Shown piece after piece: positions 2,029 to 7,191 of a DNA stretch of 29,348 nucleotides. Position numbers and translations under genes: made by a program. A model generated the notes under the pieces. That model ran no database searches. It saw only the letters and a list, made by a program, of their open reading frames with translations, and was not told the DNA's origin. How positions within the stretch are numbered: position 1 is the first letter of the stretch; each line of letters opens with the position of its first letter. Location of the stretch: contig JBHLMI010000001.1 of assembly GCA_048938295.1 (NCBI GenBank), positions 1 through 29,348 of the forward strand, in the 5' to 3' direction. This DNA comes from Promethearchaeota archaeon (GTDB taxonomy: Archaea > Asgardarchaeota > Hermodarchaeia > Hermodarchaeales > Hermodarchaeaceae).

Positions 2029-2817
2029 ATGGCGGATAAATTTGTGCTACTCCTCGAATTTTCCTCAGGAATTATTGAACCCTTACCCCTATCAACAGAA
2101 GCCCTCACCGAAGACCGAATTGTTATTGCCATTGACGAGCTAAAAGAACGCGTCTGGCTGTGGCAAGGCGCCTCCACCTCTCTGGTTGAACGTCGAGCGG
2201 CCCAACGGAAAGCCCGGTCCCTTGTCAGTGCTGGCTATCAACTAGGACCCTATCGCATTGGACGAGATGTCACCAACATAGAAATCATCGATGGAGAAAT
2301 ACTTGACGACCCTGAAATCAAAGGCTTCTATGATCAATTAGTGCACACGTTAAGCCAGCAGTTCAAAATCACCGAAGGCGTTCTTGGTCGGTTTGGTGGA
2401 ACCCCTTCTCCGGCTCCTGAACCTGCTTCTCCTGCACCTCGACCTACAACACCTGCACCTAAACCCACTCCAACAGAAAAAATCCCGCCACCTACCGCCG
2501 CCAAAACTGAAACGGTGACAGTTCAGCCAAGAACTGAAACCGTGGCCCCCGAACCCTCTCGTGACCTACAAGATCTAGGGGTGATTCGTGTAGGGATACT
2601 TATCTCATCAATACTAGACTTTTTCCCAATGTGCTACGTCAGTGCAACAAAAATCGAAAATGGCACTCGGTATTCAATTGAAGATCCCGAGGGAGTTATC
2701 TGCCAAATTGAGGTCAGTCAAGGCTCAGTCCAATTCTTACAACGATACGACTTTCGTGGAAGACGCAATGACATATTGGGGCTGCTCCGTGACCGACTAG
2801 CCTCAGCAGACCTGTAA
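2029..2817 (+). CDS. Asgard-type single-gelsolin-domain protein with Pro-rich linker and C-terminal X domain (1DGelX-like), paralog A
   Basis: LTEDRIVIAIDELKERVWLWQGASTSLVERRAAQRKARSL matches the gelsolin-repeat core (hydrophobic strand-D...hWhWxG...S...ER..A...A). Linker TPSPAPEPASPAPRPTTPAPKPTP; C-terminal helix + beta-meander domain. Confidence 0.78.
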   Translation: MADKFVLLLEFSSGIIEPLPLSTEALTEDRIVIAIDELKERVWLWQGASTSLVERRAAQRKARSLVSAGYQLGPYRIGRDVTNIEIIDGEILDDPEIKGFYDQLVHTLSQQFKITEGVLGRFGGTPSPAPEPASPAPRPTTPAPKPTPTEKIPPPTAAKTETVTVQPRTETVAPEPSRDLQDLGVIRVGILISSILDFFPMCYVSATKIENGTRYSIEDPEGVICQIEVSQGSVQFLQRYDFRGRRNDILGLLRDRLASADL

Positions 2818-3034: not shown

Positions 3035-3751
3035 ATGACACGAGTTATAATGTTAGAAATAGGGGGCTTGGGCTTTGTTCGGTCAATCCGACCTGGCGCT
3101 CGAAAGCTTCGAGGTGATGTTTGCGTCGCTGTTGTTGACGAAAAAAATAAGGCACTTTGGTTCTGGATGGGTAGCGGCGTACAATACGATAAACGTCGCA
3201 CAGCCAAAGCAAAGGCAGAAGAAATCGCCTTGGAAGGACACCGAATCGGCGATGAATTACTGGGACGTGGCTTCTCACTAGTACCCATTGACCAGGACAG
3301 CATAGATGACCCCACCACCTCAAACAACTACAATAATGTCATTGCCTTGTTAGAATCTCCCATGGAAATCACCACAGAGGCAAATCCCAAAGGCACACTC
3401 ATCATAGGACACCTTCAAGGAGCCACTCCAGCTGTTCAAATTGCTACTAGTGAACCAACCTCAACCACCACTCCAGTTACACCCATTAAAACTACAACCC
3501 CAACAGCGGCAAGGAAAATTTCCAAACTTGACCTAGAAGCTGCCTTGATGGCGATCATACGTGTTCATCAGCAAGTGCACATCGAATATAAGAGCAAAGG
3601 TGACACCGAAGAACTCCTCATTGAAGGTGCTGACGGTCTAACACATCAAATGAAGCGCAGTAAAGGAAGACTCACCTTCAAATGGGACCCAAAAACTCCC
3701 AAAGAACTCAAAGACTTGGTCGCCCACGAACTCAAAGGCCTAGCAGGCTAG
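3035..3751 (+). CDS. Gelsolin-like domain protein with Thr-rich linker and C-terminal domain, paralog B
   Basis: LRGDVCVAVVDEKNKALWFWMGSGVQYDKRRTAKAKAEEI matches the same core and shares the GxxhGxxxhG hairpin with paralogs A and C. Linker TSEPTSTTTPVTPIKTTTPT. Confidence 0.68.
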   Translation: MTRVIMLEIGGLGFVRSIRPGARKLRGDVCVAVVDEKNKALWFWMGSGVQYDKRRTAKAKAEEIALEGHRIGDELLGRGFSLVPIDQDSIDDPTTSNNYNNVIALLESPMEITTEANPKGTLIIGHLQGATPAVQIATSEPTSTTTPVTPIKTTTPTAARKISKLDLEAALMAIIRVHQQVHIEYKSKGDTEELLIEGADGLTHQMKRSKGRLTFKWDPKTPKELKDLVAHELKGLAG

Positions 3752-3778
3752 CCGATAACAAAGCAAAGGCTGGGGATT

Positions 3779-4366
3779 ATGAGCTCAATTCCTTTTGCCT
3801 TGGCTCTAATAACATCCTACGCGCTCATTGGGGCAGGCATTAAACTTGTTGATCAGGCCGTTGATGATCCAAGCTGCATTCGATTCCGCAAGCACCTTCT
3901 GTGGTTGGTTGTAGCTGGCCTAATTATTCTGGTCAACATCTGGGTCTTCCTTGATGTCTACACTGCCGTTTTGGCACTAGGAATCATATTGAGCCTCATT
4001 GCTTCGCGTAAGATTGACAATACCTACTTCATACTCCTCGCAATCACCGTCTTCCCCCTCACTCTCTTTCGATTTTTCGATATTAGCATTCTAATCTTAG
4101 TTCTTCCTACTCTCATTGCCATCTTCATTGCGTCGCTGCTTGACGAGGTGCTTCATGCACACGCATACAAAATTCAAAACGCTGCTTTACGCCGTTTTCT
4201 ACTACACCGTCCTATATTGAAAATTTGCGTTGTGATTCTCCCTTTGTTTGGGTTACTGACGTTTATTCACACAATTGGTTTTTGGTGCTTTGACATCGCG
4301 TATGACGCCTTGGCTTACTATTTTGGCGCCAAATCGTTTCCAAACGCTGAGATTGCCCCGACTTGA
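3779..4366 (+). CDS. Uncharacterised polytopic membrane protein (about 5-6 TM)
   Basis: Several 20-residue hydrophobic segments with polar motifs KLVDQAVDD, SRKIDN, SLLDE and FDIAYD; 27 nt downstream of paralog B. Confidence 0.8.
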   Translation: MSSIPFALALITSYALIGAGIKLVDQAVDDPSCIRFRKHLLWLVVAGLIILVNIWVFLDVYTAVLALGIILSLIASRKIDNTYFILLAITVFPLTLFRFFDISILILVLPTLIAIFIASLLDEVLHAHAYKIQNAALRRFLLHRPILKICVVILPLFGLLTFIHTIGFWCFDIAYDALAYYFGAKSFPNAEIAPT

Positions 4367-4397
4367 CTACTATTATCGGGTCATTCGACACTGGTTT

Positions 4398-4446
4398 GGA
4401 AAGGTTTAAGTCGGCTCGTTTATCAAAGAATGACACCTAGGTGAGG
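4398..4446 (+). promoter_or_regulatory. Putative BRE/TATA element and SD for the 4454 gene
   Basis: GGAAAGG-TTTAAG (4398-4410) lies about 44 nt upstream of the ATG, and AGGTGAGG (4439-4446) lies 7 nt upstream. Confidence 0.55.
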
Positions 4447-4453
4447 CTACATC

Positions 4454-4696
4454 ATGAAAGCAAACATTTCGCTTTCCTACAAGGGGATTAACCGAGAGGA
4501 AACCGCAACTAAAACCGGTTGGATCAATCTCCTCCTCAACCAGCATGGACGCATCATCAGTAAATTACCGTTGGGGGAAGGACGGTACCATTTCATAATC
4601 GAACTCGATGACCTGGAACGATTCACTCAGTCACTTTTCGAATTCACACGCCAGAATCCCTGGCTCCGTGTGGAAAAAGTTTCAGCCCATGCATGA
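4454..4696 (+). CDS. Small (80 aa) protein with an ACT/ferredoxin-like beta-alpha-beta-beta-alpha-beta pattern
   Basis: Fills the gap between genes and has a strong SD. Alternating strand/helix pattern: KANISLSY / TGWINLLLNQH / RIISK / RYHFIIEL / LERFTQSLFEF / LRVEKV. The fold is inference. Confidence 0.65.
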   Translation: MKANISLSYKGINREETATKTGWINLLLNQHGRIISKLPLGEGRYHFIIELDDLERFTQSLFEFTRQNPWLRVEKVSAHA

Positions 4697-4709
4697 AACA
4701 ATATTTTTT

Positions 4710-6143
4710 TCAGGTTAGCACGAACCGCTGCCCTATCCTAGGTGCTACAGCAGGACACCTAACAAGACGTTTAGCTGCATTTACGAGACTCTGACACGCC
4801 TGAGGACTTCCATGAACACAAAAAATTGTCTTTGGTGGATTTTCTCGAAGCGCCGATAAGAACCCATATAACTCCGTCTTATCCGCATGGGCAGAGAAGC
4901 CATACAATCTTTCTACCCGCGCATTCACTCGTTTTCTTTGACCATAGATGCTGACCGTTCTAGCTCCATGGACAATGCGGTGACCAAGGGTTCCTGGAGC
5001 CTGAAATCCAATTACCATCAAATTAGTGTTTTTATCCTCAATTCGCCTGAAGAGATGTCGAACAATACGCCCTCCGTTCATCATTCCGGATCCTGCCACA
5101 ATCATGATCGGGCCCCGTTGTTGGCTCAAGTTATTGCTGTCATACTGGCGTTCAACATATTGCAGGCCTTTGAAATCCAGCGGTGCGTCTCCGGATTCTA
5201 TCAGGTTCCACGTTTCCTCATCAAAGCATTCTTTATGGCGTTTGAAAATCTTGGTTGCTTTGATGGCTAATGGTGAATCGATGGCAACTGGAATGATGGG
5301 AACGCGTGCATTTTCCACTAGTAAGTTAAGGGCATAGATGAGGGCTTGTGTGCGACCAATGGCAAAGGCTGGCACCAAGATGTGGCTGTGGTGTCGATGG
5401 GTTTTGATGATGATTCGTTCAAACCGCTGAATTGCTCTTGAAAGTAGCTCGTGGTTCCGATTTGCATAGGTGGATTCGCACATTAGGTACGTCGCAGCCG
5501 AGGGGAAATCTGGATCCCGAATAATGGGGGCGTTCCTTCGACCAACGTCTCCAGTGTCAACGAGGTGAATCACCTTTCCATACTCCTCAATCCATGTTTC
5601 GACAATCGAGGACCCAAGAATATGCCCGGCATCTCGAAACTGCAAGGTTACGTTCCCAGACAGCGCTTTTTTCTTTCCATACTTGACAATCCGCAGCTGT
5701 CTGATAGTCTGTTCAGCATCGGGGGTCGTAAACAAGGGCTCTGTTGAATAGATATGATCACTTGTCTGGGGTTGCCTATTTGACCGTGCTCGTGTCGCCT
5801 CTTCCTCTTCACTTTCAGCAACATCTCTGAGAAGCAGCGAACACAGCTCGGAGGTGGCAGCAGTAACGTAGATGGGTCCGCGGAATCCTGCACGCACAAG
5901 GATAGGTAGCCGTCCACAATGATCAAGATGCGCGTGAGATAAAATAGCATAATCGATGGCAGATGCATCGAAGTGTAGGGTTTGGTTGCGCTTATGCTGC
6001 TCTGCCGGGTTGCCTTGAAAAAGGCCACAATCAATGAGAAAATTCGCAGTCTTGGTCTTGATTTGAAACAGGCTACCTGTAACGGTGTGTCCAGCACCAT
6101 GAATGGTTAGTTCCAATATGGAAAGCTCCTTTTTGGAAATCAA
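4710..6143 (-). CDS. Beta-CASP metallo-beta-lactamase ribonuclease (bacterial YSH1/TTHA0252-like, no KH domains)
   Basis: Motifs GxxxTVTGS, IDCGLFQG, SHAHLDHCGRLP, AGHILGS, TGDVG, ESTYA, PAFAIGRTQ, GSGMMNGGRI, GFQAPGTLG, FSAHAD and VHG. The start may be TTG 6116 (SD AAGGAG). Confidence 0.93.
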   Translation of the reverse strand: MISKKELSILELTIHGAGHTVTGSLFQIKTKTANFLIDCGLFQGNPAEQHKRNQTLHFDASAIDYAILSHAHLDHCGRLPILVRAGFRGPIYVTAATSELCSLLLRDVAESEEEEATRARSNRQPQTSDHIYSTEPLFTTPDAEQTIRQLRIVKYGKKKALSGNVTLQFRDAGHILGSSIVETWIEEYGKVIHLVDTGDVGRRNAPIIRDPDFPSAATYLMCESTYANRNHELLSRAIQRFERIIIKTHRHHSHILVPAFAIGRTQALIYALNLLVENARVPIIPVAIDSPLAIKATKIFKRHKECFDEETWNLIESGDAPLDFKGLQYVERQYDSNNLSQQRGPIMIVAGSGMMNGGRIVRHLFRRIEDKNTNLMVIGFQAPGTLGHRIVHGARTVSIYGQRKRVNARVERLYGFSAHADKTELYGFLSALRENPPKTIFCVHGSPQACQSLVNAAKRLVRCPAVAPRIGQRFVLT

Positions 6144-6161
6144 GGTGTTTGTAGTTAGAGG

Positions 6162-7094
6162 CTAGGCAAAGAGGTCGAATTCAGAGGATCCACCTTTCTC
6201 ATCTTCTTCCTCTTCCGGTTCCTCTTTCTTGACGGAAGTTGGCTCTGCGTCTTGCTTATTATCCTCTTTTGGTTGTTGACTGATTTGGGATAATTGTTCA
6301 CGCATGGAATCAACCACTGAAGCCGGCTTTTCGTCTGTTGAAGTTGTTGGTTCAGCAATTTGTAAGGTGGACGCAACGTAGATTTGTCCATCTGAAGTAA
6401 GTTGGGGTTGCTGTCCAAAACATCGGGCAAACGCATCGATATCTTCCTGAGTTGCCCCTCGTATCTCAGAAAACAGAATTGCGTCTCCTTGGCAGATGAA
6501 GCGTAATTGTAAACGGAGTACGGAGACCTGAAATTCGCTAGGTCCAATTGGATTCATTGTTGCTTGTCCGTAACAATCTGATACCGCGAAAAGAACTTTT
6601 GTCGCCAATTGCTCCTCATATGTTAAAATCCGACGACGAATGGGGGTGACTTGGCGGATGGGTTCAGGTACTATTGTCTGTTCAATGACTTCGACTTTAT
6701 CTTGGAAGGATTCTTCAAATGTCGAAATCTCAACCTCTTCTTTGGTGACAACAAGATAATCAGAAGCCTTTGGATGTTTTTCAAGGAGCTTGTTGAGGAG
6801 AGCCACCTTGGGGCTATTCAAATTTCCTGGCACTTCAATGAAGGTTGTGCATTTTGTGCCAAAGTGGGTATCTCCGACATGGGTGCCATTTTTCATGATA
6901 AAGCGGGCCTGCCGCAGTGCAGTGGTCCGCTGTAACATGGTTGTCCCACGTCCTAGCCATACCCAGACAATGCCCTCGGTCTCGTCAACAATGAGTATTG
7001 ATCGTCCGTCTACTAGATGCTTGGGATTCCAGTGGAGCGGTTGCATCTCGCCCCCTTCGCCCAGGACTTCAATCATCCCGATGTACTGTTTCAT
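6162..7094 (-). CDS. Gelsolin-like domain protein with C-terminal domain and acidic tail, paralog C
   Basis: LVDGRSILIVDETEGIVWVWLGRGTTMLQRTTALRQARFI matches the gelsolin core; the protein ends EEPEEEEDEKGGSSEFDLFA. ATG 7094 follows SD GGTGAT; the track start GTG 7106 is an alternative. Confidence 0.7.
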   Translation of the reverse strand: MKQYIGMIEVLGEGGEMQPLHWNPKHLVDGRSILIVDETEGIVWVWLGRGTTMLQRTTALRQARFIMKNGTHVGDTHFGTKCTTFIEVPGNLNSPKVALLNKLLEKHPKASDYLVVTKEEVEISTFEESFQDKVEVIEQTIVPEPIRQVTPIRRRILTYEEQLATKVLFAVSDCYGQATMNPIGPSEFQVSVLRLQLRFICQGDAILFSEIRGATQEDIDAFARCFGQQPQLTSDGQIYVASTLQIAEPTTSTDEKPASVVDSMREQLSQISQQPKEDNKQDAEPTSVKKEEPEEEEDEKGGSSEFDLFA

Positions 7095-7191
7095 TTTATG
7101 AATCACCGCTAGACCGTGCCATGCTCATGCAGCCACACGCTGTAAGCTCTTGTTACATATGAGGTGGGGAAGCCTATAAGAAATTGTTGTG

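Follow-up and report, generated by a model that had tools for sequence, protein, structure and literature searches.

Asgard actin is thought to be regulated mainly by profilins and gelsolins (PMC13716822). Among the described regulators, the closest in layout to the protein considered here is 1DGelX of Thorarchaeota (Thor), which combines one gelsolin/cofilin-type domain, a linker and a small domain of no known fold (Akil et al., 2020; PMC7444086). [quoted passage not shown] We analyzed a 29,348-nucleotide stretch of DNA (the window) from a Promethearchaeota archaeon of the Hermodarchaeaceae (GenBank assembly GCA_048938295.1, contig JBHLMI010000001.1, positions 1 to 29,348). The window encodes three gelsolin-domain paralogs, A, B and C. 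Paralog C shares the 1DGelX layout, its Asgard-specific distribution and its occurrence as several paralogs per genome, and ends in an additional tail made of an amphipathic helix, a charged spacer and a short aromatic motif. This tail is an undescribed conserved C-terminal module on an Asgard single-gelsolin-domain regulator, and it is confined to one small lineage.

Conservation of the paralog C tail

The gene for paralog C lies on the reverse strand at 6162–7094. Its longest open reading frame (ORF) extends from a GTG codon at 7106 (6162–7106, 314 amino acids), and residue numbers used here follow that frame; the true start is probably the ATG at 7094 (310 amino acids) because orthologs begin MKQY. 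This assignment draws on the ORF list and translation as well as on the orthologs. A 310-residue database protein (P0002) is identical to paralog C, and its relatives in public databases carry the labels Thorarchaeota, Hermodarchaeota or Promethearchaeota. The translation closes with KPASVVDSMREQLSQISQQPKEDNKQDAEPTSVKKEEPEEEEDEKGGSSEFDLFA and a stop codon, in which SVVDSMREQLSQISQ is followed by a charged spacer of 26 residues and then by GGSSEFDLFA. The C-terminal sequence quoted in a preliminary description of this locus agrees exactly with the translation of 6162–7106. The interval which that description gave for it, 6162–6325, does span helix, spacer and tail, with the codon for S263 at 6318–6320 and the stop codon at 6162–6164.

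Conserved and variable segments alternate along the tail. Among 36 database orthologs (51–100% identity), column identity was 0.76 in the amphipathic helix ASVVDSMREQLSQISQ (residues 262–277; 6276–6323, reverse strand, as are all paralog C features) and 0.57 in the last 11 residues (KGGSSEFDLFA, 6165–6197), against 0.35 in the spacer between them (residues 278–303, 6198–6275) and 0.37 in the linker that precedes the helix (linker 2, residues 245–261, 6324–6374). The preliminary description had proposed an alignment of orthologs as a check, with helix and terminal motif expected to be conserved and the spacer variable, and this is the pattern obtained. Judged from the alignment, it exceeds what would arise by chance. 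A tail with no specific function, a disordered extension that is tolerated and looks conserved because the orthologs are at a short evolutionary distance, would be in keeping with a family of two genera that contributes four 50%-identity clusters to 1.84 billion representatives. We consider this very unlikely: the spacer and linker 2 of these orthologs have almost fully diverged (0.35–0.37) with the helix retained at 0.76, and the ΦF motif (Φ, hydrophobic), its codons turning over synonymously, persists down to an overall identity of 42%.

The helix was assigned from the ortholog alignment and from two AlphaFold2 (AF2) models, one of the full-length protein, built on the 36-sequence alignment, and one of the second folded domain (domain X, below) with the tail alone. 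Both models predict it with a pLDDT of ∼62–68, and in the full-length model it comprises residues 264–276. With a hydrophobic moment of 0.46, it ranks among the top ∼11% of the protein's 14-mers. S263, R269, Q271 and L272 are invariant, and M268 and S273 are conserved in at least 90% of sequences. Because its pLDDT is middling, the modelled helix does not belong firmly to domain X, and the invariance of the polar residues S263, R269 and Q271 suggests specific recognition rather than mere packing. The flanking segments are predicted to be flexible. Linker 2 carries indels among orthologs and has a pLDDT below 50, and the spacer is disordered (pLDDT 27–31). In this genome the spacer has a net charge of −8; in orthologs it ranges from 20 to 42 residues, with acidic/basic counts from 17/3 to 7/10 and a net charge from about −14 to +3, one clade having a net basic spacer.

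The terminal motif was defined from the alignment, from lists of ortholog tails and from synonymous codon variation. Its family consensus is G-S-[ST]-[DE]-[FY]-[DEG]-Φ-F followed by zero to three residues, and the core [DE][FY][DEG]ΦF is kept, together with the helix, across about 40 orthologs (42–100% identity). Endings observed are DFELF, EFDLF, DFDLF, EYGLF, GYELF, GYDWF, DFTLF, STGLF, DEYYF and EEFYF, the motif leucine giving way in several orthologs to F, M, W, I or Y. In the family's second genus (42–48% identity) the ending is DDY[DE]LF plus two residues. The final phenylalanine is followed by no residue in 3 sequences, by one in 27, by two in 1 and by three in 6. Aromatic residues account for 1 of 1178 spacer positions versus 78 of 296 positions in the last eight residues, counts that are descriptive and do not amount to a P value, as the sequences are related. 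Across species the motif leucine is encoded by six codons and the phenylalanine by two, and the motif is retained at loci that have no following gene, including those without the β-CASP nuclease gene found downstream in the window. These observations place the constraint on the protein rather than on DNA signals that overlap it; by this codon evidence, selection on the tail acts at the protein level.

The distribution of the tail is narrow. Among 301 Asgard species genomes, full-length matches to paralog C were limited to one family (the window's genus, in 13 of 14 genomes, and a sister genus, in 4 of 4), and genomes outside it matched the gelsolin domain only. In a profile search of 1.84 billion representatives, the four clusters that reached beyond the gelsolin domain all came from this family. 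The tail alone (residues 255–314) retrieved only the paralog C family from 5.8 billion proteins, the last 50 residues had no match to PDB sequences at E ≤ 10, and none of ∼70 other Asgard gelsolin-domain representatives examined carried the helix-spacer-motif arrangement. Within the window it occurs on C alone; A and B finish in a small folded domain.

Folded domains and the putative role of the tail

The N-terminal domain of paralog C (residues ∼5–125, 6732–7094) was modelled with a pLDDT of 84–94 and contains an hWvWlG strand and a long basic helix. VIA-align superposed it on Thorarchaeota ProGel (7c2f_D) with Z 12.8 and an rmsd of 1.7 Å over 88 residues, and on gelsolin G1–G3, fragmin, adseverin and the Loki, Heimdall and Thor two-domain gelsolins (2DGels) with Z 9–11; Foldseek matched it to 7c2f_B (TM 0.84, probability 1.00). 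The mixed sheet packed on a long helix that defines the gelsolin fold is present. The models thus bear out the gelsolin domain named in the preliminary description, and by their evidence it is a true one. The Pfam Gelsolin model (PF00626) did not match paralog C at E ≤ 10, the domain being too divergent for it, and a profile of the family gave a marginal match in the PDB to villin gelsolin repeat 3 around the WvWxG strand (E 0.09). Identity to ProGel is ∼14%, compared with 35% for the published 1DGelX. Paralog C differs from 1DGelX and ProGel in that its gelsolin domain is missed by the Pfam model and in its extra helix-spacer-motif tail, and its placement in the 1DGelX class rests on architecture, the two domains of the AF2 model, and not on orthology.

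A linker of low confidence (residues 126–159, 6630–6731; AF2 confidence 54–60) separates the gelsolin domain from domain X and ends in an invariant P-x-RRR-I-L-T-Y-E-E-Q-L motif (6630–6650). Its arginines R157–R159 are encoded at 6630–6638; R158 and R159 are invariant in the ortholog alignment and R157 is nearly so. The P-x-RRR-I-L portion sits where 2DGels have their WH2-like LRRV/LKHV motif. That pattern has been quoted as L-basic-basic-V/T (PMC9433394), to which P-x-RRR-I-L is not a strict fit; from its position it could be an equivalent of the actin-groove contact of 2DGels.

Domain X (residues 160–244, 6375–6629) is compact, with the order helix, four strands, helix, strand, and has a pLDDT of 91–95 in both models. 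Its mean column identity in the 36 database orthologs is 0.81, and that of the gelsolin domain 0.79. No significant structural match was found among 48,161 chains with VIA-align (best Z 5.1) or with Foldseek (best E 0.12); the top neighbors, the C-terminal domain of IntS9, the KA1 domain of Chk1 and the γ-COP appendage, lie within the noise of the tool, so that no fold was assigned and no function was read from them. A feature search of the ESM Atlas with residues 150–314 returned scores of at most 0.80, to unnamed Asgard clusters only. The insignificant neighbors (Z ∼5) include the C-terminal dimerization domains of IntS9 and CPSF73/100, and the adjacent gene encodes a β-CASP nuclease. This pairing is probably a coincidence because the scores are insignificant and the synteny is variable.

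Of the readings considered, we regard as the most likely, and hold tentatively, that the tail is a bipartite tethered docking peptide, a 'hook' that would bind a putative partner in trans, because two conserved elements with hydrophobic faces and invariant polar residues are joined by freely varying linkers. According to this reading, a single-gelsolin-domain regulator would have gained a C-terminal module consisting of an amphipathic helix, an entropic spacer of 20–42 residues and the aromatic short linear motif [DE][FY][DEG]ΦF. The gelsolin domain would bind actin, as we infer from its homology to ProGel and 1DGelX. The side chains of V264, M268, L272 and I275 in the helix would insert into a folded surface of another protein, F311, L313 and F314 of the end motif would do likewise, and the spacer would merely set the reach. 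Such binding in trans would affect localization, either by recruiting a partner to actin or by recruiting the regulator to a site. FtsZ and SSB carry tethered docking peptides at their C termini, and the logic proposed here would be akin to theirs and to that of ribosomal stalk tails, not to that of the Arp2/3-activating central and acidic (CA) region of nucleation-promoting factors (NPFs).

Two observations weigh against docking in trans. All orthologs come from one family, so that conservation covers a limited evolutionary depth. In addition, the last five residues, whose pLDDT is ∼40 in the full-length model, reach 63 in the model limited to domain X with the tail, a rise that hints at a contact within the same protein and would slightly favor a latch. 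In that alternative, the helix, the end motif or both would fold back on the gelsolin domain or domain X of the same chain and mask the actin-binding surface until a signal arrives, in the manner of the C-terminal latch helix of gelsolin, the DAD–DID pair of formins or the autoinhibition of WASP. Eukaryotic actin regulators usually achieve autoinhibition through a C-terminal amphipathic helix on a flexible tether. The helix itself reaches ∼66 in the model of domain X with the tail, and the weak neighbors of domain X include KA1 and appendage platform subdomains, which are peptide-binding or autoinhibitory (Z 4.2–5.1, not significant). The lack of calcium control in Thor 1DGelX (PMC7444086) would also call for some other control. 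Neither the helix nor the end motif was docked confidently by AF2, however, and the neighbors of domain X fall below the tool's stated noise level. We rank the latch a close second, as possible but doubtful.

Comparison with CA regions and other C-terminal peptides

The preliminary description had likened the tail to the CA region of WASP/WAVE proteins. The likeness holds for composition: an Arg-bearing amphipathic helix, an acidic stretch and an aromatic residue near the C terminus are all present in paralog C. On the defining features it does not extend to homology or analogy. The CA region has an essential Trp, in place of which the paralog C family has Phe or Tyr, as had been remarked for the Phe of this sequence; Trp occurs in the end motif of only P0038 and L019, which belong to one lineage (GYDWFE). 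The helix of WAVE1 abuts its acidic region, whereas in paralog C 20–42 variable residues separate helix and motif, and tail acidity is not conserved among orthologs, one clade being net basic. The WAVE2 ending that had been said to share SSEFD was not verified as written. WAVE1, whose C-terminal sequence was taken from PDB entries 3p8c_D and 4n78_D, shares SEFD only, a chance 4-mer that occurs in just 5 of 38 orthologs.

The remaining components expected of such a system were also sought. No WH2 motif (PF02205) was matched in paralog C at E ≤ 10, although the gelsolin domain could be a functional stand-in for it. ARPC4 (PF05856) had no match at E ≤ 1 in this genome (91.6% complete), in a search whose sensitivity the prokaryote-only controls leave unvalidated, and the 19 family genomes searched at E ≤ 0.01 (this one and 18 relatives) gave none either, with the same kind of controls. 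ARPC2 (PF04045) likewise had no match in this genome, and prokaryote-only controls cannot validate the sensitivity of that search either. Because the Trp, the contiguity of the helix, conserved acidity, WH2, and ARPC2 and ARPC4 all fail, the tail is not a member of the WASP/WAVE CA family.

A functional analog of the CA region is a separate proposition. The genome contains two tandem actin-family genes (contig C53, 27217–29369; ∼340 amino acids each) that retain the phosphate-binding motifs. Full-length orthologs of both turned up solely in the family with paralog C; the remaining Asgard genomes match them only at E ∼1e-27, through ordinary actin. The tail might engage these truncated actin paralogs as an Arp2/Arp3-like dimer, with the gelsolin domain supplying the actin monomer. 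The layout of helix, acidic stretch and terminal aromatic would suit such a role, as would the shortened lag seen with Thor 1DGelX at low dose (PMC7444086). With Trp in 2 sequences, a gap of 20–42 residues, unconserved acidity, no WH2 and neither ARPC4 nor ARPC2 found, we judge it improbable. The co-occurrence of the actin pair with paralog C, inside one clade and hence representing a single evolutionary event, is a lead and not evidence of an interaction. More improbable still is that the tail is a primitive, independently evolved nucleation-promoting module docking onto this actin pair, which would make this a minimal NPF-plus-Arp system without an ARPC scaffold in one Asgard family.

The ribosomal stalk proteins aP1, P1 and P2 offer a different comparison. 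They too have a folded domain, a variable, charged and disordered linker and a short hydrophobic C-terminal peptide, and the aP1 of this genome ends EEKPKKEKEEEKPEEVAGLGALFG, a charged hinge followed by LF-x-COOH, an ending in common with paralog C. Leu-Phe is strictly conserved in stalk tails and touches aEF1A; the contacts of aP1 with aEF1A consist of hydrophobic residues at −8, −5, −2 and −1 and a salt bridge to the carboxylate one residue past the Phe (PMC4267659). Charged spacer and LF-x end could accordingly copy the aP1 peptide, bind aEF1A or aEF2 and so link translational GTPases to actin, and the GFGLFD end of human P1 (PMC4267659) resembles the EYGLFD of one ortholog clade. We hold such mimicry to be highly improbable. 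The two peptides show no homology, and differ in their other hydrophobic positions and in the distance to the carboxylate; the strict Leu-Phe-X-COOH with hydrophobic residues at −5 and −8 is not found in the paralog C family, where −5 is acidic, Gly or Ser, zero to three residues follow the Phe and the Leu is replaced in several orthologs. Paralog C also has an extra helix upstream. The ORF upstream of aP1 (contig C62; L001, 421–1347), a P0-like stalk base of 308 amino acids, ends ...NKNPDALLN without the charged hinge and LF-x.

Eukaryotic gelsolin-family proteins, with their latch helix or villin headpiece, resemble paralog C in joining gelsolin domains to a C-terminal add-on through a flexible linker. 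In those proteins the add-on regulates or extends actin binding, and villin headpieces end ...GLF. The region had no match to the villin headpiece (Pfam VHP) or to any other Pfam family at E ≤ 10 and is predicted to be one helix plus disorder; as a stretch of variable length with predicted disorder, the part from helix to motif in paralog C would differ from a folded headpiece. Several known peptides were considered and set aside. The HbYX motif of proteasome activators is hydrophobic-Tyr-X at the exact C terminus, and was ruled out on account of Phe rather than Tyr at the key position and a variable distance to the C terminus. PIP-box, LIR, FFAT, MIM1 and adaptor-ear motifs do not match the conserved spacing.

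Elsewhere in the genome, the other real genes that combine a charged tail with a hydrophobic-aromatic end are aP1, two encoding Pro/Glu-rich proteins that end FFF, and one encoding a large Fe-S flavoprotein. The Pro/Glu-rich ORFs have long disordered regions that end ...DQDAFFF (contig C3, 59411–59803, reverse strand) and ...KRRTFFF (contig C33, 106584–107330, forward strand); this genome may thus have aromatic end-motifs of a second class at the C terminus. One further ORF from the genome-wide scan, with an acidic tail and an aromatic end, was rejected as an antisense shadow ORF over a 2DGel gene.

Genomic setting and implications

Paralogs A, B and C have a common N-terminal domain of ∼100 amino acids (blastp E 1e-5 to 1e-10). 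Paralog A (2029–2817, forward strand; blastp to C, E 4e-10) consists, by its translation, of a gelsolin-like domain, a Pro-rich linker and a small C-terminal domain, and paralog B (3035–3751, forward strand; blastp to A, E 4e-11, and to C, 2e-5) is similar but for a Thr/Pro linker; neither has an acidic tail. Pfam scans of the three at E ≤ 10 gave noise only, and comparison of A and B with ProGel gave a match at E 0.33 or none. Two canonical two-domain gelsolins, of 206 and 202 amino acids as ORFs, are the sole PF00626 matches genome-wide (contig C4, 42596–43132, forward strand; contig C8, 136432–136971, reverse strand), bringing the gelsolin-domain proteins of this genome to at least five. 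The main actin gene is split over two contig ends (contig C9, 53228–53734; contig C18, 11406–11822).

Gene order around paralog C is conserved in both genera (window 3035–7106; loci L007–L023): paralog B is followed by a gene for a 195-residue polytopic membrane protein (3779–4366), which has no Pfam match, and by the convergent paralog C gene. HMG-CoA reductase is encoded upstream of C at all 17 of 17 loci, and part of the window's genus has, in the interval from the membrane protein to C, a gene for an 80-residue protein (4454–4696). The β-CASP nuclease gene (4710–6143) lies 19 bp downstream of C and appears to be an insertion into the cluster. Its absence from several orthologous loci led us to drop it as a clue to the function of C.

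Restriction to one family limits the general reach of these findings. Within that family, a conserved docking peptide on a flexible tether would provide a concrete experimental handle on how small Asgard regulators are targeted or controlled. If the lineage's own pair of actin paralogs turned out to be the partner, the module would bear on the origin of Arp-based nucleation; if the partner were something else, this would be the first short-linear-motif interaction for the archaeal actin toolkit.

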